In this document: in pieces, positions 3,986 through 52,150 of the stretch
Layout of the letters: each line of letters starts with the position of its first letter
Numbering within the stretch: the first letter of the stretch is position 1
Origin: an uncultured bacterium
Lineage (GTDB): Bacteria > Patescibacteriota > Microgenomatia > UBA1400 > CG1-02-47-37
NCBI GenBank assembly: GCA_963980215.1
Contig: CAXBYZ010000004.1
Coordinates: forward strand, 1 to 54,793
Reading direction: 5' to 3'
DNA length: 54,793 nucleotides
Notes under the pieces: model-generated
The model's input: the letters and a program-made list of their open reading frames with translations, nothing else
Told to the model about the DNA's origin: nothing
The model's database searches: none
Translations under genes and position numbers: made by a program

Positions 3986-3998
3986 AAGTTCGGAACTT
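3986..3998. repeat. family-I hairpin singlet (AAGTTCGGAACTT), intergenic between convergent metG and relE
   Basis: 6-bp arms around the same core as the other copies. Confidence 0.65.
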
Positions 3999-4002
3999 GA
4001 AA

Positions 4003-4260
4003 TTAGCGGTAGATTTCGCTACGATGGCCAATTTTTAGAATTATGATCATTTTATCTTCTAGGTCAAAAACTACTCTATAATTTCCAATACGAAATCGAA
4101 ATTCTCCTATCTCATTATCAGTTAATTTGTCTGCATAATACAAAGGCTCTTTTTGGCAGAAAAAATCAAGTTTAGAAAAAATTCTAGTTTGGATTTTAAA
4201 AGGAAGTTTTGCTAATTGTTTAAAAGCTTTGGGTTCAAATTTATATTCAAACTTTCCCAT
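4003..4260 (-). CDS. RelE/ParE family type II toxin
   Basis: 85 aa, 'FRFRIGNYRVVF...IGHRSEIY'. Confidence 0.9.
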   Translation of the reverse strand: MGKFEYKFEPKAFKQLAKLPFKIQTRIFSKLDFFCQKEPLYYADKLTDNEIGEFRFRIGNYRVVFDLEDKMIIILKIGHRSEIYR

Positions 4261-4269
4261 ACATTAACG

Positions 4270-4551
4270 TTATTTTATCCCCAAATGTTTTTTTGCTTCT
4301 TTGGCACTAATAAAAGTTTTCGATTGTCTAGCTTTGGAAATGGCTTTAAGGTATTTGGGACTAGATAAAGCCTCAAAATCTTCTAGAAGTGAATCCCAAA
4401 GTTTGTTGGGAATCATAACGCCTAAAGGTTTTTTGTTACGCATAACACGATAAAATTTATTAGCTCTTGAAGCTTTATTAAAAAGTTTGGTGGTTCCGGC
4501 TTGAACTTCCTGAACATTGGTAAAATCTTCTTGGGAAATTAACTGATTCAT
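4270..4551 (-). CDS. antitoxin (Phd/YefM-like) of the RelE toxin
   Basis: 93 aa directly upstream of the toxin; 'VMRNKKPLGVMI...LLEDFEALSSP'. Confidence 0.75.
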   Translation of the reverse strand: MNQLISQEDFTNVQEVQAGTTKLFNKASRANKFYRVMRNKKPLGVMIPNKLWDSLLEDFEALSSPKYLKAISKARQSKTFISAKEAKKHLGIK

Positions 4552-4590
4552 ATGTCATAATTATGACATAATTATGACAGTTATGTCAAG
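4551..4590 (-). promoter_or_regulatory. TA promoter/operator
   Basis: Perfect 20-bp palindrome TATGTCATAATTATGACATA (4551-4570); four TATG(A/T)CA repeats; TTGACA on the minus strand at 4584-4589. Confidence 0.7.
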
Positions 4591-4609
4591 TGTTGTATAA
4601 TGGGATTTA

Positions 4610-5479
4610 ATGTATATAGATACGCATTGCCATCTTAACCTGAAAGATTTTGAGAGTGATTGGAGAGAAGTGGTTGAAAAAGCTAAAAAAGCTGGTGTTT
4701 CAAAGATGATTGTGGTGGGAGCTGACTTAAGTTCTAGCAAGAGAGCTATAGAAATGGCGGAAGAAGTTGAAGGTCTTTATGCTGTGGTTGGATTTCACCC
4801 ACATCACTGTAAGGGTCTTGATGATGTTGATGAGATGATGGCCTCAATAGAAAAACTTACCAAAAACAAGAAAGTGGTGGCTATTGGTGAGTGCGGGTTG
4901 GATTACCATGTGTATCAAAAATCTAAGTATGAAAAAACTCAAGTAACTGAGGATCAAAAAAAATTGCAAAAACGGGTGTTTGGGAGACAAATTCAATTAG
5001 CTAGTAAATTGAATTTACCTCTAGTAATTCACAATCGAGAAGCTCAAAGAGATATTTTGGATACAATTGACCATTTTTGTAAAAGTGATGGCAAGTACCC
5101 AAAAGGAGTGTTTCATTGTATTTCTGGCTCTAAAAAATTTGTGAAACAACTGATAGAGAGGGGTTTTTATGTAGGGGTAGACGGAAATGTTACGTATAGT
5201 AGTGAGGTTCAGGCTTTAGTAGATGAAATACCACTTGAACGATTGTTGCTTGAAACTGATTCTCCTTGGCTAACACCGGAGCCGTTACGTAGCCAACAGA
5301 AGGTTCCGAACCGTCTTTCGCTAAAGCTGCAGACCGCTGATGGTTTGGAACCAAAATTGAGAAATACTCCTATAAGTGTTAGAATCGTGGCCGAGTACTT
5401 ATCTCAAGCAAAAAATGTTAGCTTAGAAAAAATAAGAGCCTCAACGACTAAAAATGCTGAGGCTTTGTTTAATATATGA
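4610..5479 (+). CDS. tatD: TatD family hydrolase carrying a ~20-aa palindromic-element insertion
   Basis: 'IDTHCH', 'GFHPH', 'IGECGLDY', 'LLLETDSP'; extra peptide between 'PEPLR' and 'RNTP'. Confidence 0.93.
   Translation: MYIDTHCHLNLKDFESDWREVVEKAKKAGVSKMIVVGADLSSSKRAIEMAEEVEGLYAVVGFHPHHCKGLDDVDEMMASIEKLTKNKKVVAIGECGLDYHVYQKSKYEKTQVTEDQKKLQKRVFGRQIQLASKLNLPLVIHNREAQRDILDTIDHFCKSDGKYPKGVFHCISGSKKFVKQLIERGFYVGVDGNVTYSSEVQALVDEIPLERLLLETDSPWLTPEPLRSQQKVPNRLSLKLQTADGLEPKLRNTPISVRIVAEYLSQAKNVSLEKIRASTTKNAEALFNI
5300..5352 (+). repeat. family-I doublet, subtype A cargo, inside tatD
   Basis: AAGGTTCCGAAC-cgtctttcgctaaagctgcagaccgctgat-GGTTTGGAACC; homologous to 24054-24105 and 44075-44126. Confidence 0.9.
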
Positions 5480-13553: not shown

Positions 13554-14551
13554 AGTTTGTTTTTAATTTCTTTAATTGTATATCTTTTTTGCTTAAGTTG
13601 GCGAATTTTTTTAATTTGTTTAATCATGCTTGAGTCGTAAAGCTGGTAGCCACCGTTTGAGTGACTGCTGACAGTGAGTAAGCTTTGAGTTGTCCAGAAC
13701 CTAATAGTAGAAACTGTTTCTTTTGAGGCTTTAGCTAATTGACCAATTTTAAGTAAAGGTGAAGGTTTTTTGCTTGAAGGTTCCGAACTAAATTTCGGAA
13801 AGTTCGGAACCCGCGGAACTCTGGCGGACAGATAAATATCTAAAGAATTATTGACTGATTGGTAAATTAATTTATAGTAGCTGTCCAAGCTACCGCCTAT
13901 CTGAGCGGTTTCTAAAGATTTTAGATAGGCAAGTCTATTTGTTAGCTTAATAATAATAGGCGGATAGCCTGCTTTAATTAAGAAAAGGTTCATTAGTAGT
14001 CTAGCGGTGCGACCATTTCCGTCTGCAAAAGGGTGAATAGTAACCAAGTGATAGTGAGCATCAGCGGCTAGCTTAACTGGATGAAGTGATTTATTTAAGT
14101 TAATTTTGTGAACAAATTTGGTCATTAAGGTTTTGATTTTTGTTGGATTAGGCATGATGACTCTGGATCCAGCAATTCTAACGGCAGTGCTTCTGTATCT
14201 ACCAGCACTTTGATCGTCTATTTTTGAGAGAATTATTTGGTGAAGATCTAAAATGTCATTTTCTTTTAGAGTGTAGTTTTTTTTAGCAAGAGAATAAACA
14301 TAATCCAAGGCTTGGGCATGATTAGTGGCTTCTAGGTGTTCTTTTAAAGATTTACCGTTAACAGTGATGCCTTTATCTAAAACTATCGCAGTTTGCTGTC
14401 GTGAAAGAGTATTACCCTCAATAGCGTTTGAGGTGTAGGTTAACTCGACTCTAAGCCAATCCTTAAGGTTTCTAGATAGATCCTTTGGAAGAGGCTTGGC
14501 CTGATCGAGTTTTTTCTTTTTATCGTCAATAATCTTAAGCAGGTTTTTCAT
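13550..14551 (-). CDS. Fic family protein with C-terminal MerR-type HTH
   Basis: 'SNAIEGN' autoinhibitory motif, 'HPFADGNGRTAR', C-terminal 'LKIGQLAK...TIRFW...GGYQLY'. Confidence 0.88.
   Translation of the reverse strand: MKNLLKIIDDKKKKLDQAKPLPKDLSRNLKDWLRVELTYTSNAIEGNTLSRQQTAIVLDKGITVNGKSLKEHLEATNHAQALDYVYSLAKKNYTLKENDILDLHQIILSKIDDQSAGRYRSTAVRIAGSRVIMPNPTKIKTLMTKFVHKINLNKSLHPVKLAADAHYHLVTIHPFADGNGRTARLLMNLFLIKAGYPPIIIKLTNRLAYLKSLETAQIGGSLDSYYKLIYQSVNNSLDIYLSARVPRVPNFPKFSSEPSSKKPSPLLKIGQLAKASKETVSTIRFWTTQSLLTVSSHSNGGYQLYDSSMIKQIKKIRQLKQKRYTIKEIKNKL
13777..13811 (+). repeat. family-I doublet in the Fic-MerR linker
   Basis: AAGGTTCCGAAC-taaatttcggaa-AGTTCGGAACC; encodes RVPNFPKFSSEP on the minus strand. 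Confidence 0.88.
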
Positions 14552-14675: not shown

Positions 14676-14713
14676 AAGGTTCTGAACTCGAACTTCTTTT
14701 GAAGTTCGGAACC
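14676..14713 (+). repeat. family-I doublet, intergenic (3' of groEL)
   Basis: AAGGTTCTGAAC-tcgaacttcttttga-AGTTCGGAACC, with internal CGAACTTC-tttt-GAAGTTCG hairpin. Confidence 0.85.
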
Positions 14714-14725
14714 AACGAACTTTGC

Positions 14726-16679
<1,954 letters not shown>

Positions 16680-22561: not shown

Positions 22562-22584
22562 ATTTAAGGTTCGGAACCTTAAAT
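22562..22584. repeat. family-I extended singlet overlapping the stop codon of ORF 22579-24222
   Basis: ATTTAAGGTTC-G-GAACCTTAAAT, identical to 23034-23056. Confidence 0.9.
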
Positions 22585-24222
22585 AATTTTGTCATTTCTA
22601 ATAAACTTTTGTAGTTCTTTTTCTGAGTAGTGGCGGACTTTATATTTGAGGATTTTAGTGGTGGAGAGCTTGGGGTTGTGGGGGTGGACGACTATAACGG
22701 AGCCGCCAATTTGCTTCATGAGCTTTCGTTTAGCGGGAAGGTTTGGGGTGTGGGCGGAGACGGCAAGAATGTCAGGTCTAATTTTTTTTAGTAATTTTAG
22801 GTGATCAGTTGGGTTATCAAATTTTTCTGGGAGAGAGAAAATTTGATCGGCAATCCCCCACTTTTTTAGGTTTTTAATTCTGGTGTTTATGGGGTTAATG
22901 GGGCGGTTTTTGCCTTTGAGTTTTTTGACCCGGACGTCTGTTTCGAGGCCGACTAAAAGGATGTTTGGTGATACACCTCCGAGGTGCACCGCAGGTGCAA
23001 CCTCACCTCGGAGGTGGTGAGATTGGGGTGAAAATTTAAGGTTCGGAACCTTAAATTTTTTGGCGGCTTTGAGAAATTTTTTGTGTTCCTCATGAAGAAC
23101 GTCGAAGCAGCCGGTGATGAGGATTTTGGTAGACATTGAAGGTTCCGAACTAGCCTCGACATTCGTCGAGGTCGTCCCGATTAAATCGGAACTGGAAGTT
23201 CGGAACCCTACACCTTTAAGGACTGTCCTTAGCTTGGCTTTGTATTCCTTTATAACTATTTTGCCGGTGGGACGAGGGTGAAAAAAGGCAGAGTGAAGGG
23301 TGACTTTTTCGTTGGTGATTTTTTTCTTCATGTAAGCATATTGAAGCTTGAAGGCGAGGAGGTTGAGATAGTTCAATACAGAAGGTTCGGAACTAGCTCC
23401 GGTGTTCACCGGAGTTGCAAGATTACTTGCTGAAGTTCCGAACCAACGAGGCTTGGTGGTTTTATCTTCTGTTAAGAACTGTTCTTGTAGGGCGTTTTTG
23501 GGTAGTGCATTGGGTAAGAATTTTTTGACCCAAGAGTTTGTAGAGATAAATTTTTCGTAAGTTTGGTCTTTATTGTAAAGGGGTTTGATTTGGCAAACTT
23601 CGTGAGCAGTGTAGAGATTGCGGCGAGATTTAGGTATAGAAATGGATGATTCTTCTAAGAAAAGGTTGAGGCAGATGGCATTCTCGGGTCCGAGTACGGA
23701 CTCGAGTCCTTTAAGGTCCGGCCTTAAAGGAGTACCTTCAAGAACGGACCTTTTTTGAGGACGACGACGGAGGTGAAAGATTTCTAGGAGAGGAATAACC
23801 AACAAGCGAGTCAACCAAAGACGGTTGGTGGTGGTGACAATCATAAGATCGATGTCGTCGTTTTTGTCTGAGTTGTTCATGGCTAAGGCTCCGGTGACGG
23901 CAATTAATTTAACTGAAGGGATAGCACTTAAAATTTTAGATATTTTTTTAGCTTTAGTTAACTTTAATTGACTAAAGTGATGGCGAGATTTGCGGATCTT
24001 GGCAAGATGGGAGCGGTTTGGGAGGTGGTAATAATTGGAGGTTTTCCCAATCAAAGGTTCCGAACTGCCTTTCGCTTTGCTGCAGGTTGCTGAAAGTTCG
24101 GAACCAACGAGTCCTGAAAGAACGGACCTTTTATCTGAAATTAGCCATTTAATTATCTCTTTCTTGGTTAGAGGATAGTCGAAAATATCGGCATAAGCGA
24201 GAGTTTTTAAGATGGCTTCCAT
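22579..24222 (-). CDS. fusion of a Pol-beta-like nucleotidyltransferase domain and a cytidylyltransferase-like domain, with many palindromic insertions
   Basis: N-part 'AVTGALA...DDIDL'; C-part 'ITGCFDVLHEEH...LVGLETD..VKKLKG.NRP'. Confidence 0.72.
   Translation of the reverse strand: MEAILKTLAYADIFDYPLTKKEIIKWLISDKRSVLSGLVGSELSATCSKAKGSSEPLIGKTSNYYHLPNRSHLAKIRKSRHHFSQLKLTKAKKISKILSAIPSVKLIAVTGALAMNNSDKNDDIDLMIVTTTNRLWLTRLLVIPLLEIFHLRRRPQKRSVLEGTPLRPDLKGLESVLGPENAICLNLFLEESSISIPKSRRNLYTAHEVCQIKPLYNKDQTYEKFISTNSWVKKFLPNALPKNALQEQFLTEDKTTKPRWFGTSASNLATPVNTGASSEPSVLNYLNLLAFKLQYAYMKKKITNEKVTLHSAFFHPRPTGKIVIKEYKAKLRTVLKGVGFRTSSSDLIGTTSTNVEASSEPSMSTKILITGCFDVLHEEHKKFLKAAKKFKVPNLKFSPQSHHLRGEVAPAVHLGGVSPNILLVGLETDVRVKKLKGKNRPINPINTRIKNLKKWGIADQIFSLPEKFDNPTDHLKLLKKIRPDILAVSAHTPNLPAKRKLMKQIGGSVIVVHPHNPKLSTTKILKYKVRHYSEKELQKFIRNDKII
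22974..23016 (+). repeat. family-III doublet (CACCT-CCG-AGGTG ... CACCT-CGG-AGGTG)
   Basis: Same architecture as family I with a different stem; inner hairpin GCACC-gca-GGTGC; encodes HLRGEVAPAVHLGG. Confidence 0.85.
23031..23059. repeat. family-I extended singlet, intragenic
   Basis: AAAATTTAAGGTTC-G-GAACCTTAAATTTT (14-bp perfect arms); encodes KFKVPNLKF. Confidence 0.92.
23139..23207 (+). repeat. family-I doublet with two inner hairpins at the domain junction
   Basis: AAGGTTCCGAAC-ta-GCCTCGAC.attc.GTCGAGGT-cgtc-CCGATT.a.AATCGG-aactgga-AGTTCGGAACC. Confidence 0.92.
23217..23231. repeat. family-IV triloop hairpin (TAAGGA-CTG-TCCTTA); a variant AAGAA-CTG-TTCTT lies at 23474-23486
   Basis: Perfect stems with a CTG loop, each next to a family-I doublet. 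Confidence 0.55.
23382..23444 (+). repeat. family-I doublet with two inner hairpins (loop order swapped)
   Basis: AAGGTTCGGAAC-ta-GCTCCGGTG.tt.CACCGGAGT-t-GCAAG.atta.CTTGC-tga-AGTTCCGAACC. Confidence 0.92.
23684..23752 (+). repeat. family-II composite element (69 bp)
   Basis: TCGGGTCCG-agta-CGGACTCGA hairpin plus the 40-mer AAGGTCCGGCCTTAAAGGAGTACCTTCAAGAACGGACCTT (23713-23752). Confidence 0.93.
24054..24130 (+). repeat. family-I subtype A doublet (24054-24105) plus an internally deleted family-II remnant (24108-24130)
   Basis: AAGGTTCCGAAC-tgcctttcgctttgctgcaggttgctgaa-AGTTCGGAACC, then CGAGTCCT-ga-AAGAACGGACCTT. Confidence 0.9.
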
Positions 24223-25763: not shown

Positions 25764-27503
25764 ATGATAAGCAACATATATAAAAAAACAGTAGTAATAT
25801 TATTGGGGATTTTAGCTGGAATTACAGGGATTATGTTGTTGTATGGAGTTTCTTATTCCCAAAAGATATATCCCTTTTTATATGTTGGAAAAACTAATGT
25901 ATCTAACTTGAGTATTGATGAGGCGGAAAAAATATTGAGAGAGAAAATTCCCGAAGGGTTACAAGTGCTTGATGTTTGGTTTGGAAATCAGAGCTTTGCG
26001 GTGGAAGCGAGTGAGCTGGAGTATGATCCAAAATTGACGGCGGATAAAGCTTATTTGGTGGGGAGAGAAGGAAAGTTTCTTGATAATTTTAAAACTAAGT
26101 GGAGCTTGTGGTTTAGCAAAAAATCTTTAAGTTTTGAGTATAAGCTTAATAGTGAGGTGTTGGAGGAGCAGGTTGATTTATTGATATCTCAAGTGTCGGC
26201 GCCACCGATTTACTACTCTCTTTCTCAAACTCCGGAGGGTCAGATAGTGGTTGTGCCTGGGAAGAGTGGAAGAGTGGTTAATAAGAATAAGCTGATGAAA
26301 GATATTGATAAAGGACTTAGTAACTTGGATTTTTCTAAAATAGTAGTTGAGGCGAGTTTGATAGAAGTTGTTGTGAGTCAAGAAGAGTTGGAAAAAGCAC
26401 AAAGGAGAGGAGAGTTATTGAAAGAGAGAGTTTTGAGTTTGAAGTATGGAGATGGTGAGAAAAAAATTGAAGGTCAGGGCTTGATTGATTTGATTGATTT
26501 TAAGGGTGGTTTTGATGAAGAAAAAGTTAAAAAATTGATGGGATTGGTGAGTGAGGAAGTAAACCGAGAGCCTCAAAATGCTGTTTTTAGATTTGAAGGT
26601 GGAAGAGTGGTTGAGTTTAAGCCGGCTATAGATGGTCTTTTGGTGAATGAAGAAATTTCTATTATTAAGGTGGTTGATGGTCTTTCCAGGCTAGAAACTC
26701 TTAACTGTAAAGAAGTTTGCGAAACAATTATTGTTAACCTAGAAGTAGAGAAGTCTGCTCCAGAAGTTAGAATTAGTGAAGTTAATAATTTAGGAATTGT
26801 TGAGTTAATTGGAAAGGGTGAGTCAACCTTTCATGGATCGATACCCTCTAGAGAACATAATGTGGCTCTAACTGCTTATAAGTTAGATGGGGTATTAATT
26901 AAACCAGGAGAAGTGTTTTCGTTTAATGGAAGTGTGGGTGATATTTCGGCAGCAACTGGATACCAAAGTGCTTACATAATTAAAGATGGAAGAACTGTTT
27001 TGGGTGATGGAGGTGGAGTTTGCCAAGATTCGACAACAATGTTTAGAGCAGCACTTGATGCTGGATTGCCAATTATTGAAAGACACCCTCATGCATATAG
27101 GGTGAGTTATTATGAGCAAGGGTCGCCGGTGGGGATTGATGCTACGATTTACTCTCCTTCTACTGATTTCAAGTTTTTGAATGATACGCCGGCACATATA
27201 TTAATTCAGACAAATGTGAATACTGTGAGCAATTATTTAAAAATTGAAATTTATGGAACAAGCGATGGGAGAGTAGCAACAATTAGCAATACTAGATTGT
27301 GGGACCAGTCTCCCCCGCCAGATCCCAAGTACGAAGATACCCCGTCACTGGCTACTGGAGTAGTAAAACAGGTAGACTGGGCAGCTTGGGGAGGAAAAGC
27401 GGCTTTTGATTGGAGGGTGGTTAGAGGAGGTGAAGTTCTACAAGAAAAAACTTTTTACTCAAGCTATAGACCTTGGCAAGCAGTGTACTTAAGAGGAATA
27501 TGA
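25764..27503 (+). CDS. VanW family protein with peptidoglycan-binding domains
   Basis: 'GEVFSFN', 'GGGVCQDSTT', 'ERHPHAY', 'DATIY'. Confidence 0.9.
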   Translation: MISNIYKKTVVILLGILAGITGIMLLYGVSYSQKIYPFLYVGKTNVSNLSIDEAEKILREKIPEGLQVLDVWFGNQSFAVEASELEYDPKLTADKAYLVGREGKFLDNFKTKWSLWFSKKSLSFEYKLNSEVLEEQVDLLISQVSAPPIYYSLSQTPEGQIVVVPGKSGRVVNKNKLMKDIDKGLSNLDFSKIVVEASLIEVVVSQEELEKAQRRGELLKERVLSLKYGDGEKKIEGQGLIDLIDFKGGFDEEKVKKLMGLVSEEVNREPQNAVFRFEGGRVVEFKPAIDGLLVNEEISIIKVVDGLSRLETLNCKEVCETIIVNLEVEKSAPEVRISEVNNLGIVELIGKGESTFHGSIPSREHNVALTAYKLDGVLIKPGEVFSFNGSVGDISAATGYQSAYIIKDGRTVLGDGGGVCQDSTTMFRAALDAGLPIIERHPHAYRVSYYEQGSPVGIDATIYSPSTDFKFLNDTPAHILIQTNVNTVSNYLKIEIYGTSDGRVATISNTRLWDQSPPPDPKYEDTPSLATGVVKQVDWAAWGGKAAFDWRVVRGGEVLQEKTFYSSYRPWQAVYLRGI

Positions 27504-31319: not shown

Positions 31320-31823
31320 TTATACCTTAAGGTTCGGAACCAAGTGACCTTTCATTTTGTGAGTGAAGGCGTGAGTGAGGGCGACGGCGAGGGCGTCGGC
31401 GGTGTCGTCTGGTTTAGGGATGGTGGTTAATTTTAAGATAGTTTTTGTCATTTGTTGGACTTGGTTTTTGTCGGCCCGACCATAGCCAGTGACGGCCATT
31501 TTTATTTGGAGAGGTGAGTAGGAAAAACAAGCAAGCTGATTAATCTCTCCAGCTAGTAAGATGACTCCCCTAGCTTGACCGACTTTGATAATGGTGGTTT
31601 GATTTTTGAAAAAGAAGAGATCTTCGACAGCCAAGGCGTCTGGTTTGGTGGTTTTGATAATTTTATTAAAGCTATCAAAGAGGTCTTTAAGACGAGCAGA
31701 GTCTGACTTACCCGGTTTGGTTTCTAAACAACCGTAGTTCCCGACTGTTTGGTTGCCAGATTGATCGTTAATAATTCCCCAGCCAAGACGGGCACTGCCT
31801 GGATCGACGCCTAAAATTTTCAT
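31320..31823 (-). CDS. ruvC: crossover junction endonuclease RuvC
   Basis: 'ILGVDPG', 'AVE', 'DDTADALAVA'. Confidence 0.96.
   Translation of the reverse strand: MKILGVDPGSARLGWGIINDQSGNQTVGNYGCLETKPGKSDSARLKDLFDSFNKIIKTTKPDALAVEDLFFFKNQTTIIKVGQARGVILLAGEINQLACFSYSPLQIKMAVTGYGRADKNQVQQMTKTILKLTTIPKPDDTADALAVALTHAFTHKMKGHLVPNLKV
31329..31341. repeat. family-I singlet forming the RuvC C-terminal tail (LVPNLKV*)
   Basis: AAGGTTCGGAACC. Confidence 0.75.
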
Positions 31824-31843: not shown

Positions 31844-34075
31844 ATGGATAAAACTTATAAAGCATCAGATCATGAGGGGAAGATTTACCAGAAATGGGAG
31901 GAGTCGGGGGCGTTTGCACCTAGTGTAAACGGGAAACCATTTACAATTATTATGCCGCCGCCGAATGCTAATGACCCGCTTCATGTGGGACATGCCATGT
32001 TTATCTCAGTTGAGGATATCTTTATTCGATATAAGAGAATGCAAGGGTTTAGCACTTTGTGGTTGCCGGGAACAGACCACGCTGGGATAGAAACACAGTT
32101 TGTTTTTGAGAAGAAATTAAAAAAACAGGATAAAAGTCGATTTGACTATGACAGGGAGACTTTGTATCAAATGATTTGGGATTATGTGCAAGAAAACTCT
32201 GAGGTGGCAATTAATCAAATGAAGAAGCTTGGAGCTAGTGCTGACTGGAAGAGGAAGAAGTTTTCCTTGGATAAAGATGTTGTTGAGAAAGTTCTTGATA
32301 CTTTTATTCAGTTACATAAAGATGGGCTTATTTACAGGGACAACAAACTGGTTAATTTCTGTACTAGGTGTGGGACTGCATTTTCTAACTTGGAAGTTGT
32401 TCATACTGAGAAGAAATCTCCACTTTACTACATGAAGTATGGGCCATTTGTGTTAGCAACAACAAGGCCAGAAACTAAGTTTGGTGATACGGCAGTAGCC
32501 GTTCACCCCAAAGATAAGAGATATGCTAAATGGATTGGTAAGGAGATAGAAGTTGAGGGGTTGCTGGGTAAATTTATGATAAAAGTAGTGGCGGATGAGT
32601 ATGTGGATCCTAAGTTTGGAACTGGAGTGGTGAAGATAACTCCGGCACATGACTTTAATGACTTTGAAGTGGGTAAGAGACATAAGTTGGAAGTTAAGCA
32701 GGTGATTGGTTTTGATGGAAGATTAAATAAACACTGTGGAGAGTATGCTGGCTTAACGGTGTTTTCGGCCAGAGAAAAAGTGGTAGAGGGTTTGGAGAAA
32801 AAAGGTTTGATGGAAAAAATTGACAAAGATTATGTTCACTCCGTGGGGAGTTGTTATCGATGTGGGCGAGCAATTGAACCTCTTCCCTTACCTCAGTTTT
32901 TTATTAAAGTGAAGAATTTAACCAAGACCGTGCTTAAAGCTTTGAAAGAAAAAAAGGTGAAAGTTTATGGTTCGGGACATGAGAAAATATTAAAACACTG
33001 GCTAGAAAACTTAAATGATTGGAATATTAGTCGACAGATAGTTTGGGGGATTCGAATTCCGGTGTGGTACTGCAAGAAGATTGAAGGTTCCGAACTAGCC
33101 CAATCAAAGATTGGGTTGGCTAAAGCCAGAAGTTCGGAACCCTGTTATGTTGTTAGTAAAGATAAGCCAAACAAATGTAGTAAGTGTGGTTCAACAACGT
33201 TTGCACGGGATGAGGATACTTTTGACACATGGTTTTCTTCTGCACAGTGGCCGGTGGTGACTTTAAAAACAGGCAAAAAATCTGATTTTGAGAAGTTTTA
33301 TCCAACAGATTTGATGGAGACTGGATATGATATTCTTCCCTTCTGGGTGATGAGAATGTTGATGATGGGATTGTACTCAACTGGAAGAGTACCTTTTAAA
33401 AGTGTTTATCTTCATGGAATGGTGAGAGATGGTAGAGGACAAAAGATGAGTAAGAGTAAGGGTAATGTTATTAATCCGGTGGAGATTGTGGATAAGTATG
33501 GGGCCGATGCTCTAAGAATGGCCTTAGTGATGAGTAGTACGGCTGGAAATGATAAGTCTGTGGGGGATGAGACAATTAGAGGAATGAGAAATTTAACTAA
33601 TAAGATTTGGAATGCGGCGAGGTTTGTGATGGAGTTTTTGCCGGAGACGGCTAATAATCAAGGTTCCGAAGAACCTTTTTCGGGTTCGAGTACGAACTCG
33701 AGTCCTCAAAGGTCTGGCCTTAAAGGAGTACCTTCAAGAACAGACCTTAGTCAACAAAGTTCGAAACCATCTAGTTTTGAAGGAGATAAAGAGTTTGAGG
33801 AAGAGATTTCCAAGATTGTAAATGAGGTGACCAAACAGCTTGAAGACTACAAGTTGGGGTTGGCGGCGGAAACGGTGTATAACCAGTTTTGGCATTGGTT
33901 TTGTGATGAGTCCATCGAGTCGGCTAAAGAAGGTAAAGTTAGCTACCCTGTTTTGATGAATGGATTAAAGACATTTTTGAAACTTCTTCATCCTTTTGTA
34001 CCATTTGTAACAGAAGCAGTTTGGCAAGAACTTGGTGAAGAACAATTATTGATTACAAGTAAATGGCCTATTTAA
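31844..34075 (+). CDS. valS: valine--tRNA ligase (no C-terminal coiled coil; two element-derived insertions)
   Basis: 'PPPN', 'HVGH', 'GTDHAGI', 'WNISRQ', 'DTWFSS', 'KMSKS'; likely start MDKTY at 31844. Confidence 0.96.
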   Translation: MDKTYKASDHEGKIYQKWEESGAFAPSVNGKPFTIIMPPPNANDPLHVGHAMFISVEDIFIRYKRMQGFSTLWLPGTDHAGIETQFVFEKKLKKQDKSRFDYDRETLYQMIWDYVQENSEVAINQMKKLGASADWKRKKFSLDKDVVEKVLDTFIQLHKDGLIYRDNKLVNFCTRCGTAFSNLEVVHTEKKSPLYYMKYGPFVLATTRPETKFGDTAVAVHPKDKRYAKWIGKEIEVEGLLGKFMIKVVADEYVDPKFGTGVVKITPAHDFNDFEVGKRHKLEVKQVIGFDGRLNKHCGEYAGLTVFSAREKVVEGLEKKGLMEKIDKDYVHSVGSCYRCGRAIEPLPLPQFFIKVKNLTKTVLKALKEKKVKVYGSGHEKILKHWLENLNDWNISRQIVWGIRIPVWYCKKIEGSELAQSKIGLAKARSSEPCYVVSKDKPNKCSKCGSTTFARDEDTFDTWFSSAQWPVVTLKTGKKSDFEKFYPTDLMETGYDILPFWVMRMLMMGLYSTGRVPFKSVYLHGMVRDGRGQKMSKSKGNVINPVEIVDKYGADALRMALVMSSTAGNDKSVGDETIRGMRNLTNKIWNAARFVMEFLPETANNQGSEEPFSGSSTNSSPQRSGLKGVPSRTDLSQQSSKPSSFEGDKEFEEEISKIVNEVTKQLEDYKLGLAAETVYNQFWHWFCDESIESAKEGKVSYPVLMNGLKTFLKLLHPFVPFVTEAVWQELGEEQLLITSKWPI
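33084..33141 (+). repeat. family-I doublet with two inner hairpins inside valS
   Basis: AAGGTTCCGAAC-ta-GCCCAATC.aaa.GATTGGGT-TGGCT.aa.AGCCA-ga-AGTTCGGAACC. Confidence 0.93.
33660..33768 (+). repeat. nested element in valS: degenerate family-I arms enclosing a family-II composite (33680-33748)
   Basis: AAGGTTCCGAA...TCGGGTTCG-agta-CGAACTCGA...AAGGTCTGGCCTTAAAGGAGTACCTTCAAGAACAGACCTT...AAGTTCGAAACC. Confidence 0.92.
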
Positions 34076-40477: not shown

Positions 40478-40513
40478 AGGTTACGAACCAAAATTTCGGA
40501 AGGTTTGTAACCT
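40478..40513 (+). repeat. family-I doublet (ACG variant) between yidD and yidC
   Basis: AGGTTACGAACC-aaaatttcgga-AGGTTTGTAACCT; same spacer as 13777. A degenerate singlet CAAGG-cttggaa-CCTTG lies at 40521-40537 in the yidD tail. Confidence 0.85.
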
Positions 40514-40728
40514 TACCCTTCAAGGCTTGGAACCTTGTCTATTCCTCCTTGATTCCAAGGGTGACATTTAAAAATCCTCCTAATACCAAGGAGGCTACCT
40601 CTTAATATACCATATTTGTTAATAGCTTGATAGGAATAATCTGAACAAGTGGGTGAGAATCTACAGTTTTTGGAGTTTTTGGTCAAACTTTGATATATAT
40701 TAATTGTTTTGAGAAGAATTTTTTTCAT
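40513..40728 (-). CDS. yidD: membrane protein insertion efficiency factor YidD
   Basis: 'CRFSPTCSDY', 'RIFKCHPW..GGID'. Confidence 0.94.
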   Translation of the reverse strand: MKKILLKTINIYQSLTKNSKNCRFSPTCSDYSYQAINKYGILRGSLLGIRRIFKCHPWNQGGIDKVPSLEG

Positions 40729-41210: not shown

Positions 41211-41238
41211 AAGGTTCCGAACTCGGAAGTTCGGAACC
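41211..41238 (+). repeat. minimal family-I doublet between rpmH and dnaA
   Basis: AAGGTTCCGAAC-tcgga-AGTTCGGAACC. Confidence 0.88.
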
Positions 41239-41283
41239 CATCTAGCTTCAAGAACTAACCTTGTTATTTATATGTTGACAGGG

Positions 41284-41292
41284 TGTGGATAA
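41284..41292 (-). promoter_or_regulatory. DnaA box upstream of dnaA
   Basis: TGTGGATAA (reverse complement of TTATCCACA). Confidence 0.75.
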
Positions 41293-41351
41293 CTATGTAT
41301 GTTTATATTGAGATGGGTTTTCCATTAAGGTTGAGCCCTGCCTACAATATT

Positions 41352-42930: not shown

Positions 42931-42942
42931 AAAGGAGAAGAG

Positions 42943-44067: not shown

Positions 44068-46030
44068 AGTCGTTAGGTTCCGAACTGCCTTTCGCTGGCG
44101 CTGCAGGCCGCTGAAAGTTCGGAACCGTGGCCGGTGAGGGTGCAGGGGTAGATGTTGGGTTGGTTGCGGGGGCGGGCTGTTTGTTGGCCAGTACTTCTTT
44201 GGGGTCACTGGTGATAAGAGCGTGTTCGTCTGGTGAGGCAACCACCTTTACAGCTACGTGGTTTTGACCAGCGAAGATAATACCGTGGCCAATGCCGGCC
44301 CCTAAAAGTAAGTGTTTTTCTCCTTCGGAAAGGTAAAAGATTTTAGCTAGCTTGTCGATAGCGGCGGTACTTTGTTTCATTAAAATTTGAATTGAAGAGT
44401 TGGTGACGATGGCTTTGCCGTAGTCTGAGGAGAGAAAGTCTTCGACATCTTGAGTGATGGTGGTTAAACCCAGATAGTATTTCCTGGCCCTTTTGGCCAT
44501 GGAGTAGAGGAAGCTAGCTGAGTCTGGGTATTTCATCATGTACCAAGCCTCGTCGACGACTAGTAGCCTTTTTTTTAGGTCTTTTTTAACTTTTGTCCAG
44601 ATGTGATCTAGAATCATGAACATGGCAATAGGGCGAAGGGCATCTTCTAGTTCCTGAATAGAGAAAACAGTAAAAGTGTTTTGAATGTCAACATTGGTGT
44701 GTTGGTCAAAGATGCCCCGAAAGGAGCCTTTGACAAATTTTTCTAGGCGAGCGGCCAAGTTAAGGGCAGCGGTTTCTTCCATGCCGATTAAAACTTTATA
44801 CAGGTCTTCAAGGAGAGGGGGTTCTTTTTTTTGAGTGGCAGGGTCGGGGGTGATGCCTTTTTGTTTGTAGGTTAAGATAATACTTCTATCTAGAAGAGCT
44901 TCTTCTTGAGGGGAGAGGTCACCCATGATGATTTTAAAGAGGGAGTGAAGAGAGAGAATTTTTTGGGAAAGTTCGTTTTGACCTTCTTCATAAACTTGAG
45001 ATAGGTCAAAGGGGTTTATTTTTGAAGTAGATTTAAAAGAAAATTGAATGTATTGACCGCCCACGGATTCACAGAGTTTTTGATACTCGTTTTCAGGATC
45101 GATAATGATGACTTCAGTGTCAAACATTAATGACCTTAGGGCTTCAAGTTTAACAAGGTATGATTTACCAGCACCAGATTTAGCAAAGACGACGGAGTTA
45201 GCGTTTTCAAGAGAAAATCGGTCGAGAATAATGAGAGAACTGTTGTGCTGATTGATGCCGTACAAAACACCCGTATCTTGAGTTAACTCTGAAGAGGTAA
45301 AGGGAAAAGTGGTGGCTAGAGAGGTGGTGTCCATGTTTCTGGTGATCATTAGTCGATCTTGAGCTAAAGGGAGAGTGGTTTTGAAGGCGTCATTCATTTG
45401 AAGGCTGGCTGGTTTGGCAATGATCATGAGCGAGCCTAGGGCTGATTGAACTTGTTTGGTAATTTTATTTAATTCTTCTAAGGAGTCGGCAGGGATAGTA
45501 ATGTAGAGGCCAAATTGAAAGAATCTCTCAGAGCCTTTAGCTAACTCAATTTGAAGAGACCTGGCATCTTCTAGTTGAACTTTGGTGGAGACGTCGGCAA
45601 TTTTACCCCTTTCAATGTCTGACTGGATCTCGGCCTCCATTTCCCCGACTTTTCTTCTTAGATCACTCATGATGCCACGGCCATCGATGGGGTAGATATA
45701 CATGGAAATATTAAGAGAGTGTCTAAAGTTGATTAAGGGGGAGAGCCAGTTGGCGTTGACAAAGCGAGGGTAGCCAGAGACAAAAAGGGTGCGAAAGTAG
45801 GTGTTGTCAATTTTTTGGTGAGAAAAGTCAATTTCGATGGCTGAGGGGGCAATTATATCCTGGACAGAGGTGACTCCTCGGGAGAACTGATCTTGTTCAA
45901 AGCTGGTTTCTTGTTTGGTTTGTTTCGGGGTGGCCTGAGAAGCCGGGTTTGGGGTTGGCGAGTCACCTGGTTTTTGATCAGCTTTTGGGGTCGATGGAGG
46001 TTTTTTGGGTAGAGAAAGATTAAGTTTCAT
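44042..46030 (-). CDS. VirB4/TraC-like ATPase
   Basis: Walker A 'AKSGAGKS', 'IIDPENEY', 'VVDEAW', 'RARKY', 'ITQ'; likely start MKLNL at 46030. Confidence 0.88.
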   Translation of the reverse strand: MKLNLSLPKKPPSTPKADQKPGDSPTPNPASQATPKQTKQETSFEQDQFSRGVTSVQDIIAPSAIEIDFSHQKIDNTYFRTLFVSGYPRFVNANWLSPLINFRHSLNISMYIYPIDGRGIMSDLRRKVGEMEAEIQSDIERGKIADVSTKVQLEDARSLQIELAKGSERFFQFGLYITIPADSLEELNKITKQVQSALGSLMIIAKPASLQMNDAFKTTLPLAQDRLMITRNMDTTSLATTFPFTSSELTQDTGVLYGINQHNSSLIILDRFSLENANSVVFAKSGAGKSYLVKLEALRSLMFDTEVIIIDPENEYQKLCESVGGQYIQFSFKSTSKINPFDLSQVYEEGQNELSQKILSLHSLFKIIMGDLSPQEEALLDRSIILTYKQKGITPDPATQKKEPPLLEDLYKVLIGMEETAALNLAARLEKFVKGSFRGIFDQHTNVDIQNTFTVFSIQELEDALRPIAMFMILDHIWTKVKKDLKKRLLVVDEAWYMMKYPDSASFLYSMAKRARKYYLGLTTITQDVEDFLSSDYGKAIVTNSSIQILMKQSTAAIDKLAKIFYLSEGEKHLLLGAGIGHGIIFAGQNHVAVKVVASPDEHALITSDPKEVLANKQPAPATNPTSTPAPSPATVPNFQRPAAPAKGSSEPNDSTPAPSPA
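44046..44152 (+). repeat. family-I subtype A doublet (44075-44126) flanked by a perfect 23-bp direct repeat
   Basis: GCCGGTGAGGGTGCAGGGGTAGA at 44046-44068 and 44130-44152. Confidence 0.93.
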
Positions 46031-47794: not shown

Positions 47795-47848
47795 AAGTTA
47801 CTAACTTCATTATATGGAGGCTTTTTAATATTGACAAGAAAAGAGAAA

Positions 47849-48880: not shown

Positions 48881-51366
48881 TGTTCGGCGAGACTACATTT
48901 ATTAAGATGAAATTTTGCTTCAAGGTCTTCTGGGGCACAAACAGGGTTACCCCCTTCGTAAATCTCGAAATGAAGATGTTCTGGGGTAGTAGTAGCGTTT
49001 AGTCCGGTTTTATCGGTGGTGGCAACTACTTGGCCGACGGAGACTGACTCACCAGCCTGAACGTAAAGGGCACAGTTGTGGGAGTAGTAATAGGTTCGAC
49101 CATCTTTACCAACAATTGAAAAGTTAATTCCAGCGTTTTTATGGTTGAACTCAACATGGCCAATAACACCAGACACGTATGCAATAACTGGAGCACCGAC
49201 AACTTGATCTGATCCCGTCATGCCAACACCAAAGCCAATGTCGGTGGCCCAACTGGCGTCTCCCCAATGAGTGCAGGAAAGCCAATAATCAGAGCGAGCA
49301 ACAGGAAAGGCATATTGGCCATCATCAGAAAAAAGAATACTGCCTGGGGTGGGTGGAGGTTGGTCAGATAAAGCGCATTCGTAGGAAATTTTTTCTGAGG
49401 AGTTTTCTTCTGAAGAAGGGGATTGATGAAATGAGTCTTCAGGGGTAAAAGGGAGAAAAAAAGCGGAATTGATGGTTTGTTGTTGTTGGTGAATTATTAG
49501 AGCGGTGGGGATGATGGCACCGCCGATGCCGACTAAGGTTAAGCTGGTGGCAGTGGCGGCAGCGGCGGTGCCGGAAAGAGAAGAGAAAAACCCGGATATT
49601 GCCGAGCCTGCAGAACCAACAATGGCAGCGATATTGGGAAGATTATAGCCAAAGATTGCTCCTAAGGAGGTGCCGATGAGGCCGCCGGCAAAGAAGCCAA
49701 CAACGGTTCCAAGTCCAGGAAGAATCAGGGTGCCAATAAAGGCCCCTAAAAGAGAGCCAGCGAACCCCCAAAGACTACCAAAAAGGGCGGCGCTTAAAGC
49801 TTTAAGGGTGCTTAAAAGGGTTTGAAGGGCTTTGGCGCCAGCACCGGCCGAGTCGCCATATTGAGACTCTTTTTCTCTTTTTTCTTTGAGTTTTCTTAAA
49901 GTGGATTTAAAAAATGAAAAGGCAAATTTTAAGACGACTAAAGGGATGCCAATACCGCTGGCGGTGCCAAGAATTGTGCCCCCAAGGTCGGTGAGGAACT
50001 TGATACTTAATTTTTTACCCAACCAGGCAATACTGCGACCAGTTTGTTTGATTGTCCAAGCACCAACCCTTTTTCTAATTCCATTCGGACTCCATTTATT
50101 CCAAAAAGATTTGGTTTTCATTCTGGCTAAACGGAGGCGGGCAATGCGATGACGACGCTCAGGAGTTTTAACTTTGGCGCTTCTAGCCCATGATTTTACG
50201 TCCTTTTTAACCTTGCTTTTAACACTACTGACGGCATTATTAAACCTCATTCTGGGGGCGATAGCCCAGCCAAGAGGATTGGTTTGTTTAAATTCACTCA
50301 CGGCTTTGGTAAAGTCTTTATAGTGACCATCGACTTTGGTATAAAAATTAAAAGGATGTTCGAGAATTTTATTGGCACCGATTAAGGATTTTTGATGAGC
50401 TTTGTAGATGGGGTGATAGAGTTTTTGGGCAACAAAGACTTGAGGCTTGAGAGTGGCAGCAGAGAGATGGCCGGAGAGCCCCATTTGATGGGTAGGGTCG
50501 GTGGGTGTAGAAACAAGGTCGTGAATTCTTGAAACTTCAGTTTGGAGGTCTTTAGAGAGGCGTTCATCAGCTGAGGAAAAACCGGACTTGGTATAAGCAA
50601 GAGCGAGGGGGGAGACACCCATGGCATTTGCTTGGCGAATAGTTTTGGCATCGACTCCCGGCTTGAAAGGGGTAAAGGGGGTGGTTCGGGGAAGGGGGTC
50701 GGTAGAAGCTTGAACATAGTGATGGACTTGGTCGGTATTTTTGAGTAAAGTGTTGGCAAATTGGGCAACCACAACCTGATTTAAACCAAATTTATCAGAT
50801 TGAGCGGCCAAGTCTTTGATGGCCTGGTTGATTCTATTGGGAGTTGGATGATTGATAATGTCTGGCTGGTTTCTTAGGTGTTGAAGCATTTGAGAAGCTT
50901 GTTCCGGTTTGATACCAAAGTCACTTTCTAAGCCTTCAAGAAGTTGGGTGGCAAGAACTTCGCTATCAAGAGGTTTTGGAGTCTTTTTGGCGGCGGCTTT
51001 GGCGGCGTTTTGGGCGTCTTCGTTAGTGAGGTTTTCTCCGATGGATGAGGCAATTTGGTCGCGAATTTTTTGAGGAATTAGATTATTAAACTTGTTATTG
51101 AATTCTGCCTCTCTTTGAATGGCTTTGGCTATGGCTAGCTCTTTGGCATCTTGATAGCTTTCTGGGTCAAGATTGGGGGTTTGTTTGAGTTCCTGAATAA
51201 CTTGATGGCTAATTTGATCTGAGACCTCTTGAGCCATTTGTTGGCGGAATTCTTCAGGATAGGAGCTGTCAACAATTTTTAGAATGGCGGAGCCAACTTG
51301 ATTGACAATACCATTTTTTACGAGATTTAGGTAGTAATTTGAGCGAGAAGAATCTTGGTCGGGCAT
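48868..51366 (-). CDS. large membrane protein with a C-terminal M23 peptidase domain
   Basis: Gly-zipper TM region; 'THW...ATDI', 'YYYSH', 'TPEHLHFE'. Confidence 0.75.
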   Translation of the reverse strand: MPDQDSSRSNYYLNLVKNGIVNQVGSAILKIVDSSYPEEFRQQMAQEVSDQISHQVIQELKQTPNLDPESYQDAKELAIAKAIQREAEFNNKFNNLIPQKIRDQIASSIGENLTNEDAQNAAKAAAKKTPKPLDSEVLATQLLEGLESDFGIKPEQASQMLQHLRNQPDIINHPTPNRINQAIKDLAAQSDKFGLNQVVVAQFANTLLKNTDQVHHYVQASTDPLPRTTPFTPFKPGVDAKTIRQANAMGVSPLALAYTKSGFSSADERLSKDLQTEVSRIHDLVSTPTDPTHQMGLSGHLSAATLKPQVFVAQKLYHPIYKAHQKSLIGANKILEHPFNFYTKVDGHYKDFTKAVSEFKQTNPLGWAIAPRMRFNNAVSSVKSKVKKDVKSWARSAKVKTPERRHRIARLRLARMKTKSFWNKWSPNGIRKRVGAWTIKQTGRSIAWLGKKLSIKFLTDLGGTILGTASGIGIPLVVLKFAFSFFKSTLRKLKEKREKESQYGDSAGAGAKALQTLLSTLKALSAALFGSLWGFAGSLLGAFIGTLILPGLGTVVGFFAGGLIGTSLGAIFGYNLPNIAAIVGSAGSAISGFFSSLSGTAAAATATSLTLVGIGGAIIPTALIIHQQQQTINSAFFLPFTPEDSFHQSPSSEENSSEKISYECALSDQPPPTPGSILFSDDGQYAFPVARSDYWLSCTHWGDASWATDIGFGVGMTGSDQVVGAPVIAYVSGVIGHVEFNHKNAGINFSIVGKDGRTYYYSHNCALYVQAGESVSVGQVVATTDKTGLNATTTPEHLHFEIYEGGNPVCAPEDLEAKFHLNKCSLAEQCNP

Positions 51367-51405
51367 AGCTATAATTAGTATAGCAGAGGAGGGGTTGTTC
51401 GGCTC

Positions 51406-51432
51406 ACATGAAGGTTACGAACCTTCATGTAG
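51406..51432 (+). repeat. RAYT-flanking palindrome (3' of the gene)
   Basis: ACATGAAGGTT-ACG-AACCTTCATGT-AG; identical to 52124-52150. Confidence 0.95.
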
Positions 51433-51435
51433 AAA

Positions 51436-52062
51436 CTATTCTAAGGATAGCTTTGTAAGTTTTTGGGCTATATTTTCTTTGGTGGGGGAGGAAAGAAAAC
51501 TTGAATAATTCTTGGTTAGTTTTAAGACATATTCCGGATACAGCCAGTCTGTGGGATCGGTTTTTTTAAGATATTCTGGTAGAGAAGAATATGAGGTTTT
51601 GTGGAGATGAATGTATTTTGAGAGTTGCAATAACTGTTCACTGGAATCAACAACTACATTTTTGTAGCGACCCTGGAAGATAGCGCCGGAATGTTTGTGA
51701 TGGCTTTGAAAGTACATGGCATAGGTAATCATTAATCTTCGCATAAGATTAGAAATGTTGGTTTTATTGTCTGCAGTGGGCATGGGTTTTAAAATGAAGT
51801 GAAAGTGGTTGGGCATGAGACAGTAGGCAACAATTCTAACGGAGTCAACATGAAGGTTACGAACCTTACTGTAGGGTTTTTGGACGGTGTCTTTGTAGGA
51901 GAAATATTTGGCAGTAGGGAATTTTAGGTAGTAGATGAGAATTTCAATGAAAGTGTCGTAATCTTTTTTGTCTTTAAAGATTTTATGTTTGTAAGCACCA
52001 CGATTAAAGATGTGATAAAAATGTTGAGGTCTGAAATTTCTATTGTAATACTCACTGGGCAT
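51436..52062 (-). mobile_element. HUH/Y1 tyrosine transposase, REP-associated (RAYT, IS200-like Y1_Tnp)
   Basis: 'FYHIFNRG', 'AYCLMPNHFH' (HUH), 'GAIFQGRYK', 'YIH', 'YSS'; palindromes on both sides; no tnpB. Confidence 0.9.
51848..51874 (+). repeat. palindrome copy inside the RAYT coding sequence
   Basis: ACATGAAGGTTACGAACCTTACTGTAG, identical to 52078-52104; encodes YSKVRNLHV. Confidence 0.93.
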
Positions 52063-52077
52063 TAATTTAAGTATAGC

Positions 52078-52150
52078 ACATGAAGGTTACGAACCTTACT
52101 GTAGCGCGAGGGCTTGGGGTGTTACATGAAGGTTACGAACCTTCATGTAG
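52078..52150 (+). repeat. two tandem RAYT-flanking palindromes (5' of the gene)
   Basis: 52078-52104 and 52124-52150; the second supplies the TAA of ORF 52133-52474. Confidence 0.95.

Follow-up and report, generated by a model that had tools for sequence, protein, structure and literature searches.

The 54,793-nt stretch of DNA analysed here (the window) is a contig of an uncultured marine member of the Patescibacteria, or candidate phyla radiation (CPR), in which a short palindrome recurs both between and within genes and surrounds a gene for a putative Y1 HUH transposase (51436..52062, minus strand). The locus raises the question of whether these palindromes are mobile elements served by such enzymes and whether, as an earlier note on this DNA had proposed, they form a new system that inserts into genes. 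The known counterpart is the partnership of repetitive extragenic palindromes (REPs) with REP-associated tyrosine transposases (RAYTs), which has been studied almost only in Proteobacteria, with extragenic repeats and an enzyme that is usually single-copy. Our analysis makes it likely that this is a RAYT/REP-type system, in which 16 diverged Y1 HUH paralogues each sit in a REPtron (a RAYT gene flanked by REPs) and in which palindromes and doublets resembling REPINs (REP doublets forming hairpins) are dispersed more than 100 times. The system thus belongs to the known RAYT/REP-REPIN kind and stands out by its unusual setting.

Contig C4, which the window spans completely, belongs to a genome (G000) of 820,410 bp in 45 contigs with 39% GC. 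All 21 loci listed in the earlier note carried the core or a close variant with 1 to 2 mismatches. The window contained 22 exact matches to GGTTMCGAAC against 0.06 expected, and the maximum in 100 dinucleotide shuffles was 2. These matches fell in 16 of the 21 loci, and the variants with 1 to 2 mismatches were found at 3986, 28120, 33660 and 40521 and in the left arm of 14676. Across the genome, the commonest 10-mer was the CCG form of the core, GGTTCCGAAC/GTTCGGAACC, with 81 copies; GGTTACGAAC and GGTTCGGAAC had 43 and 52 copies, and clustering of the core matches gave 105 core loci. Perfect palindromes (stem of at least 9, loop of 1 to 5, GC of at least 0.3) numbered 123, compared with 11, 11 and 12 in three first-order Markov controls. 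They sorted into about 20 families, which also account for most of the over-represented GC-containing 12-mers of the genome. The enrichment over background that the note had made a test of its proposal was therefore observed both in the window and genome-wide.

The elements had two architectures. The first consists of simple perfect palindromes of 21 to 31 nt, e.g., ATTTAAGGTTCSGAACCTTAAAT, AATATTCGAGGTTACGAACCTCGAATATT, ATTCCAGGTTCGGAACCTGGAAT, ACATGAAGGTTACGAACCTTCATGT and ACATACTGGTTCGGAACCAGTATGT. The second is a composite, GGTTCSGAAC-N(8-75)-GTTCSGAACC, of which 32 were found genome-wide, the doublets sharing the core GGTT-NNN-AACC. Six composites in the window were predicted to fold into a single long hairpin with an 11-bp outer stem and often one or two inner hairpins (fold z of -2.5 to -7.8; -7.8 for 33080-33146 and -5.5 for 23135-23212). 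Identical inner sequence was found with CCG/CGG arms and with ACG/CGT arms, indicating that both arms change together and the long stem is kept. The inner helices varied between copies while the architecture remained constant. REPINs are two inverted REP units with a spacer that form one long hairpin, and the composites, judged by their sequence and predicted folding, are their counterpart. The core-to-core lengths of the composites were not multiples of three, and their true borders are not definable from sequence alone. Related families also exist, as the note had reported; one is a 72-nt repeat with the core AAGGTCCG...CGGACCTT at 23681, 27488 and 33677. In scans for Rfam families and tRNAs, tRNA-Cys was the only hit, and the elements matched no described RNA family at gathering thresholds.

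The location of the copies was read from a longest-ORF (open reading frame) map of 867 ORFs covering 94% of the genome, an overestimate because the longest possible start was always taken. A copy was counted as well inside an ORF when it lay >30 codons from the N-terminal end and >15 from the C-terminal end. By this measure, 57 core loci (of 105) were well inside ORFs, as were 60 perfect palindromes (of 123), so the extragenic position by which REPs are defined does not hold here. Of the other core loci, 8 were among the last 15 codons of an ORF, 8 (ambiguous) among the first 30, 4 across an ORF end and 28 between genes. The note had placed most of its 21 loci inside intact ORFs, which is roughly right. 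Ten were well inside (5300, 13777, 23031, 23139, 23382, 24054, 28120, 33084, 33660 and 51848) and two were in the last 15 codons (31329 in RuvC and 44075 in a VirB4-like protein), but two merely touched an ORF end (40478 and 52124) and seven were intergenic (3986, 14676, 22562, 40521, 41211, 51406 and 52078).

The 57 intragenic loci were held by 47 of the 867 ORFs, five of which are RAYT genes. Pfam families were found in 32 of the 34 non-RAYT hosts tested, out of 42 in all. The hosts include ValRS, LeuRS, ArgRS and CysRS (aminoacyl-tRNA synthetases), IF-2, Obg, TrmD, TsaD, a TsaC-TsaE protein, RecF, Fpg, an ATP-dependent DNA ligase, two ribonucleotide reductases, MurJ, a P-type ATPase, adenylosuccinate lyase and TatD.

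Alignment of host proteins with orthologues, the check proposed in the note, and with solved structures revealed clean in-frame insertions in ValRS, TrmD, TsaD, TatD and a 547-aa protein. TrmD aligned with 3ky7 had a gap of exactly 21 residues at the element, and TsaD aligned with 8iey had gaps of 18 and 9 residues. The composite, REPIN-like element at 5300..5354 (plus strand, as are all elements below for which a strand is given) inside tatD (4610-5479) adds about 20 residues (aa 231-250) ahead of the conserved RNxP segment, as seen in the PDB and orthologue alignments. Compared with the orthologues of 11 relatives, ValRS (valS, 31826-34075) had two insertions found only in this genome, both in variable linkers. 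One is a composite with two inner hairpins at 33084..33143 (plus), a 20-aa insertion IEGSELAQSKIGLAKARSSE (z -7.8). The other, at 33660..33750 (plus), joins a degenerate core to a 72-nt-family element; the longer segment to which it belongs, about 40 aa, was absent from 10 of the 11 aligned relatives, the sequence of the eleventh (G001) being a fragment that ends before the site. Contigs from independent runs covered 33660..33750 with 0 differences.

The 547-aa protein is encoded by ORF 22579-24222, a single conserved gene whose product has 470-579 aa in relatives and in which five or six segments derive from elements. A read-through gene fusion was considered for this ORF and ruled out, since relatives have one frame of 470-579 aa. 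The simple palindrome ATTTAAGGTTCGGAACCTTAAAT occurs at its 3' end (22562..22584) and again inside it (23034..23056; FKVPNLK, aa 391-395). The remaining elements, all on the plus strand, are a composite with two inner hairpins at 23139..23209 (aa 339-361; z -5.5), a composite at 23382..23446 (aa 260-280), a 72-nt second-family element (AAGGTCCG...CGGACCTT) at 23681..23752 (z -6.2) and a 50-nt-family composite at 24054..24107 (aa 40-56). Other intragenic copies in the window were a short composite at 13777..13813 (plus; aa 247-258) in the Fic/MerR ORF 13550-14551 and the variant palindrome AAATTCCAGGTACGGAACCTGGAATTT at 28120..28146 in ORF 27473-29029. A partial 72-nt-family copy at 27488..27559 (plus) lies at the 5' end of the latter ORF, where doubt about the true start codon makes its position ambiguous.

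The recurring peptides named in the note are real. KVPNL, KVRNL, GSEP/GSEL/SSEP, RFRT/GFRT and RSGLKGVPSRTDL are three frames of one DNA core. Copies were found in all three frames and on both gene strands, indicating that the repeated unit is DNA and not a peptide. Every intragenic copy left the host frame open, and the inserts inferred from alignments were whole codons (21, 18, 9 and 20 aa). It is this pattern that makes it extremely improbable that the intragenic elements are tiny hairpin introns, removed from mRNA or bypassed and so untranslated, because removal at the RNA level needs neither an open frame nor whole codons. The very stable predicted hairpins, with z down to -7.8, and the variation of the inner helices within a constant architecture would suit such introns.

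The idea that the elements are built to insert in frame was dropped, as no feature showed such a design. The elements had 4.1 open frames of 6, compared with 3.5 in length-matched random ORF segments, and intergenic copies had 4.0 compared with 3.8. Being barely more stop-free than random sequence, the elements are more simply read as survivors of selection in a genome with little intergenic DNA.

The occupied loops differed between sister genomes. The TrmD loop contained GSEP...GSEP in this genome and a different 40-aa repeat block in G001, and it was empty in G003, G004 and G012. The TatD insertion was common to G003, and G002, of the same genus, had another element there. This indicates that gain, loss or replacement of inserts takes place within the time span of genera, at recurrent permissive loops. 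Other in-frame repeat peptides, e.g., GQSLTGD..., SKETPSSSAVPTRHSAGSPVKE and SGSSTNSSPQRSGLKG.PSRTDL, were observed at the same loops in the sister genomes G001, G002 and G003 (loci L008, L009, L118, L125, L126 and L155), so the intragenic repeat families differ between species of one genus. As a separate observation, the single ORF at C2 2842-3960 (locus L133) combines a Sua5/YciO/YrdC (TsaC) domain (aa 21-199) with a TsaE domain (aa 224-341), and the GGTTCCGAAC core lies at aa 200-203, exactly between the two domains. The two domains may thus come from genes that were fused across a stop-free element.

The transposase gene at 51436..52062 encodes 208 aa with the HUH motif NHFHF (H86, H88) and a catalytic tyrosine in SKYIHLH (Y150). 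The protein scored 35 bits with Pfam Y1_Tnp (PF01797), above the cut-off of 23, and its only NCBIfam match was REP_Tyr_transpos. Close homologues carry public names such as 'transposase [Patescibacteria group bacterium]', 'REP-associated tyrosine transposase' and 'RayT'. With tblastn, 16 paralogues were found in the genome, 33-64% identical to the window copy, 204-226 aa long and all with intact HUH (NH[FY]H) and YIHxNP motifs; H86, H88 and Y150 were invariant. In a profile alignment with E. coli TnpA-REP (4er8), the match spanned the HUH motif, YIxxNPVK and the (W/Y)x(F/Y)S(S/T) tail. The AlphaFold model (pLDDT 84.8) matched ISDra2 TnpA and 4er8 at an E value of 1.5e-5, with the longest alignment to 4er8, and IS608 TnpA was also among its fold matches. 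By its sequence and predicted structure, the protein is a Y1 HUH transposase, closest to RAYT/TnpA-REP.

The fold therefore agrees with ISDra2 and IS608 TnpA as well as with TnpA-REP, and each gene is bracketed by hairpins resembling the ends of insertion sequences (IS). Together with the many copies of the gene family in the genus, where each genome has 16-19 matches, this would be expected if the gene and its palindromes were autonomous IS200/IS605-like units and the dispersed palindromes were solo ends or excision scars, not mobilised in trans. Several features make this reading improbable. An active IS occurs as near-identical whole units with distinct left and right hairpins, but no near-identical copy was found here (at most 64% identity to the window protein), and the same symmetric, perfect palindrome was present on both flanks. 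The proteins have a RAYT-like YIHxNP...YSS tail that aligns to 4er8, and composite doublets with inner hairpins are not IS ends. What the elements share with IS200/IS605 (IS608, ISDra2) is the Y1 HUH fold, a strand-specific polarity and, presumably, hairpin recognition; they differ in their diverged gene copies, symmetric flanks, longer proteins and lack of tnpB.

The longest near-identical copies surround and enter the window RAYT gene, as the note had stated (51406-51431, 51848-51873 inside the gene, 52078-52103 and 52123-52149). The downstream cognate palindrome (51406..51431; 11-bp stem) begins 5 nt past the stop codon. The in-frame copy at 51848..51873 encodes YSKVRNLHV (aa 64-72) in a loop predicted with low confidence. 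The proximal upstream copy (52078..52103) has 2 mismatches in one arm; directly after it, read along the gene, comes GCTATACT, some 9 nt ahead of the ATG. The distal upstream palindrome (52123..52149), TACATGAAGGTT-ACG-AACCTTCATGTA with a 12-bp stem, overlaps the stop codon of ORF 52133-52474.

This layout was general. In 15 of the 16 paralogues, the gene had its own palindrome on both sides, scored as an 18-19-nt core upstream of the ATG that recurs, with no more than 3 mismatches, at or just past the stop codon. The sixteenth lies at a contig end. On C30, the contig end cuts the downstream copy, which is still visible. The upstream palindrome (21-31 nt) lay about 20-45 nt before the ATG, and in 13 or 14 of the 16, by eye, a TATA(C/A/T)T box followed it by a few bases and ended 7-10 nt before the ATG. 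The stop codon adjoined or fell within the downstream copy. In a consensus scan of the window RAYT locus, neither a sigma-70 pair ahead of the gene nor a T-tract terminator was detected.

The palindrome differed in every one of the 16 paralogues, and these families were also dispersed in the genome. The palindrome of the window enzyme, CATGAAGGTT-ACG-AACCTTCATG, had 4 copies at its own locus and 4 elsewhere. The commoner GGTT-CCG/CGG-AACC elements matched the palindromes of paralogues on C14, C15 and C23. The single cognate enzyme named in the note can thus be kept for CATGAAGGTT-ACG-AACCTTCATG but not for the GGTT-CCG/CGG-AACC copies, and the link of a REPIN-like family, with many true in-frame gene insertions, to RAYT-type Y1 HUH enzymes holds. 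The covariation of palindrome with paralogue argues that the enzymes may bind and cleave their REP hairpins. One palindrome family, with the core GTCAATCGATTGAC (a 12-mer with 10 copies; sites at C6 36440/36900/42576, C10 9131 and C23 10782), adjoined no RAYT paralogue among the 16 loci examined.

The pairing also bears on a rival view, in which the palindromes benefit the host as signals (for DNA uptake, termination or protein binding) that recombination and selection have spread, the RAYTs being mere neighbours. Uptake sequences are known to be the commonest oligomer of a genome, with strand polarity and coding copies. The core palindrome has the same three properties, and downstream copies adjoin stop codons like terminators. 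This explanation is nevertheless most unlikely, as about 20 palindrome families, each paired with its own enzyme paralogue, would not be expected of it, nor would copies in all three frames and on both gene strands, presence at the same loop that differs between sister genomes, or the lack of T-tract terminators at the RAYT locus.

In 12 of the 16 paralogues, the same palindrome core was also found inside the ORF. These internal copies were at nt 187-193 in six close paralogues, at nt 467 in two, and at both nt 142-151 and nt 452-455 in four. They were in frame, with a register constant within each clade, and lay in either of two loops, one preceding the HUH strand and the other following the catalytic-tyrosine helix; residues ~50-72, the pre-HUH loop, formed the only poorly predicted internal segment of the model. 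Between paralogues, the internal sequence varied in step with the flanking copies. Such cognate hairpins embedded in the enzyme's own gene look new. A tentative explanation, possible but doubtful, is that they form a circuit for self-recognition. The transposase would sense the gene or transcript that encodes it, or cut it, which would serve for autoregulation or as a self-limiting governor and would force hairpin and protein to co-evolve.

The arrangement extended to other species. GTDB species genomes contained at least 582 homologous loci, of which the best 80, mostly labelled as Patescibacteria lineages, were compared. Matching perfect flanking palindromes were present in 33 of these 80 loci and an internal cognate copy in 19. 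When 2 mismatches were allowed, flanks were found in 40 and internal copies in 21 of the 75 loci with enough flank. All 26 internal positions in other species were at nt 152-206 or nt 449-494. The complete genome G026, of another family, had four perfect copies at -56, 148, 456 and 682.

Within the order, the enzyme family was present in 45 of 81 genomes, with 17, 19 and 12 matches in the genus of the window, 2-9 in its family and none in three families (7, 6 and 7 genomes sampled). GGTTCSGAACC had 40, 26 and 26 copies in the genus, 4-7 in another four members of the family and 10 in two genomes besides. The enzyme was present in each of these nine genomes, the ones with at least 4 copies, and the 36 genomes without it had at most 1 copy. 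The co-occurrence of RAYT and hairpin, another check named in the note, was therefore found, mostly among close kin.

The composites had a fixed polarity. When they were grouped into families (of 6, 13, 3 and 2) by their asymmetric inner sequence, 24 of 24 had one orientation relative to the sign of the GC skew, a count that covers the composites that cluster into families and leaves out eight that do not. This polarity was independent of the strand of the host gene. The loop orientation of simple palindromes followed the skew at 29:3 for ACG (22:3 without the RAYT-locus copies), 8:1 for TAG and 8:2 for GGAAC-C. The skew itself lay between +0.17 and +0.40 in almost all 2-kb bins of the window, regardless of gene strand; genome-wide, its absolute value per contig was 0.1-0.5, even along each contig and likewise unrelated to gene strand. 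A fixed polarity relative to a strand asymmetry fits single-strand transposition at the fork, and IS608 and ISDra2 are described as targeting the lagging-strand template (PMC6006769).

These observations point to the following mechanism. Each enzyme would bind its own hairpin in single-stranded DNA and would cut and rejoin beside it, moving elements on one strand at the replication fork. In a genome with almost no intergenic DNA, many insertions would thus land in genes. They would persist if they keep the frame, are free of stop codons and lie in tolerant surface loops, where they would be translated as 5-25 extra residues.

Several points weigh against this reading. The RAYT equivalog NF047646 (REP_Tyr_transpos; cut-off 80 bits) was not reached by the three of 16 paralogues tested (37.6, 51.8 and 45.3 bits), and the best PDB match of the paralogue profile, 4er8, was weak (E 0.036). 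No conserved 5' tetranucleotide was found in five aligned families 0-2 nt from the hairpin foot, where a GTAG or GTGG guide would lie; the window palindrome family, the only one with GTAG, has it on the 3' side in 6 of 8 copies. Polarity was weak or absent for the CGG (27:13) and AGGAC-A (7:7) loops. The skew changed sign within none of six contigs examined, so polarity has no within-contig control. It also stayed positive on both sides of dnaA-dnaN (41283-44067), despite a cluster of DnaA boxes, so that reading the skew as replication direction is an assumption; either the origin lies elsewhere or the skew is not set from the dnaA-dnaN locus. The ORF map is crude. Seven of the nine genomes with both enzyme and repeats are close kin, and their co-occurrence is supportive but not independent. 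Catalysis, mobilisation by the enzymes, translation of the inserts and the link between skew and replication are what we infer from these patterns.

Population data gave one presence/absence variant, which is weak and also counts against the mechanism. Contigs of four independent DNA runs were compared over 22500-42400; they were low-depth fragments, often ending inside elements, and in them no filled or empty site was found for any intragenic element. At 40500-40521, a 22-nt unit with the small hairpin AAGGTTTGTAACCTT was missing in one contig (depth 4.4) of the independent marine run X5; a REP unit upstream of yidC may thus be polymorphic for presence or absence. Paralogous copies are the probable source of the 1-nt insertions at 24076/24078.

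The remaining elements of the window lie between genes or at gene ends. The variant palindrome AAGTTCGGAACTT (3986..3998) is intergenic, and a composite at 14676..14715 (plus) is intergenic just downstream of groEL (14726-16384, minus strand). A short core palindrome at 31329..31343 forms the last codons of ruvC (31320-31823). An ACG-loop composite with small hairpins (40478..40535, plus) is at or upstream of the yidC start, and a minimal intergenic composite (41211..41240, plus) is upstream of dnaA. A 50-nt-family composite (44075..44128, plus) follows the dnaN stop and falls in the last 28 codons of the VirB4/TraG-like ORF 44042-46108. Four DnaA-box-like sites, two of them perfect, were observed in the 208-nt dnaA-dnaN spacer (at 42733-42799) and one at the dnaA start; in the whole window, DnaA-box matches numbered 20 compared with 15.5 expected, not above chance. 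The RAYT gene is embedded in a minus-strand gene run (44042-54721) that contains the VirB4/TraG-like ATPase (44042-46108), an 832-aa protein with a C-terminal M23 peptidase domain and four ORFs without a Pfam family (46020-48880 and 52133-54721). This run may be a type-IV-secretion-like or pilus-like cluster.

Among known systems, Rickettsia palindromic elements (RPEs) are palindromic repeats that lie in frame in protein-coding genes of a small genome and are tolerated as extra peptide segments. The elements studied here resemble RPEs in being in-frame palindromic insertions in a small genome, but they are shorter (13-90 nt), and each family has a flanked Y1 gene. With proteobacterial REPtrons they share a Y1 HUH enzyme with the YIxxNP...(W/Y)x(F/Y)S(S/T) tail, a gene flanked by its own palindrome, a dispersed family for each paralogue and doublets that form long hairpins. 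They differ in their CPR host, in the lack of a 5' GTAG/GTGG guide, in their perfect, AT-flanked palindromes, in that about half of the copies are intragenic, in the cognate copies within the enzyme ORF and in scores below the NCBIfam cut-off.

The note had taken RAYT-linked REPs to be only extragenic, a premise that is out of date. Passages of PMC3733652 (Di Nocera et al. 2013) describe the GTAG and CGTC REP superfamilies and REP-flanked RAYT genes ('REPtrons'), as well as REPs lying wholly inside ORFs of known proteins in several species, singly or as dimers encoding 20-30 aa and some of them twice in one gene. The same passages tie GTAG REPs to RAYTs, equate RPE-4 and RPE-6 of Rickettsia with intragenic CGTC REPs and leave CGTC REPs and RPEs without a dedicated transposase. 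With intragenic REPs and REPtrons already published there, the present elements are not a categorically new system. Palindromes fully inside ORFs, single or dimeric, are common to both; in those passages they are an intragenic minority of a mostly intergenic family with GTAG/CGTC tags, whereas here at least half are intragenic, the hosts amount to 47 of 867 ORFs and the tags are lacking. This comparison draws on text passages of PMC3733652, and its host lists may bear on how unusual the intragenic share is.

The relevant sections of PMC6006769 divide the Y1 family into 12 subclasses, assign every tnpAREP its own REP family, with several possible per genome, and define the REP guide as GTAG or GTGG 0-2 nt 5' of the hairpin foot; CPR lineages are not mentioned in its searched text. 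RAYTs are described as typically single-copy in bioRxiv 10.1101/119735. As the note had supposed, no description of RAYT/REP elements or in-frame palindromes in CPR/Patescibacteria was found in the main texts of the open-access literature; the only paper naming both 'REP-associated tyrosine transposase' and 'Patescibacteria' deals with an archaeal locus. What is unusual here is the CPR host, the 16 pairs in 0.82 Mb, the lack of a GTAG guide, the roughly half of copies that are frame-compatible in essential genes, the hot-spot loops that differ between sisters, the strict polarity and the embedded hairpins.

The finding indicates how a RAYT/REP system behaves in a minimal, coding-dense CPR genome without intergenic refuges. 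There, surface loops of essential proteins, among them tRNA synthetases, TrmD, TsaD, IF-2, RecF, Obg and ribonucleotide reductase, are remodelled. The elements are a source of protein length variation in CPR and call for caution in annotation and in phylogenies built from such proteins. The strict strand polarity may serve as a marker of replication direction in organisms that cannot be cultured. The 16 enzyme-palindrome pairs in one genome, and many more in Patescibacteria, form a natural covariation set for how Y1 enzymes read hairpins. If self-recognition is true, hundreds of natural matched enzyme-hairpin pairs would make the Y1 recognition code readable. The hairpins in the enzymes' own genes suggest a testable idea of how domesticated transposases are held in check.

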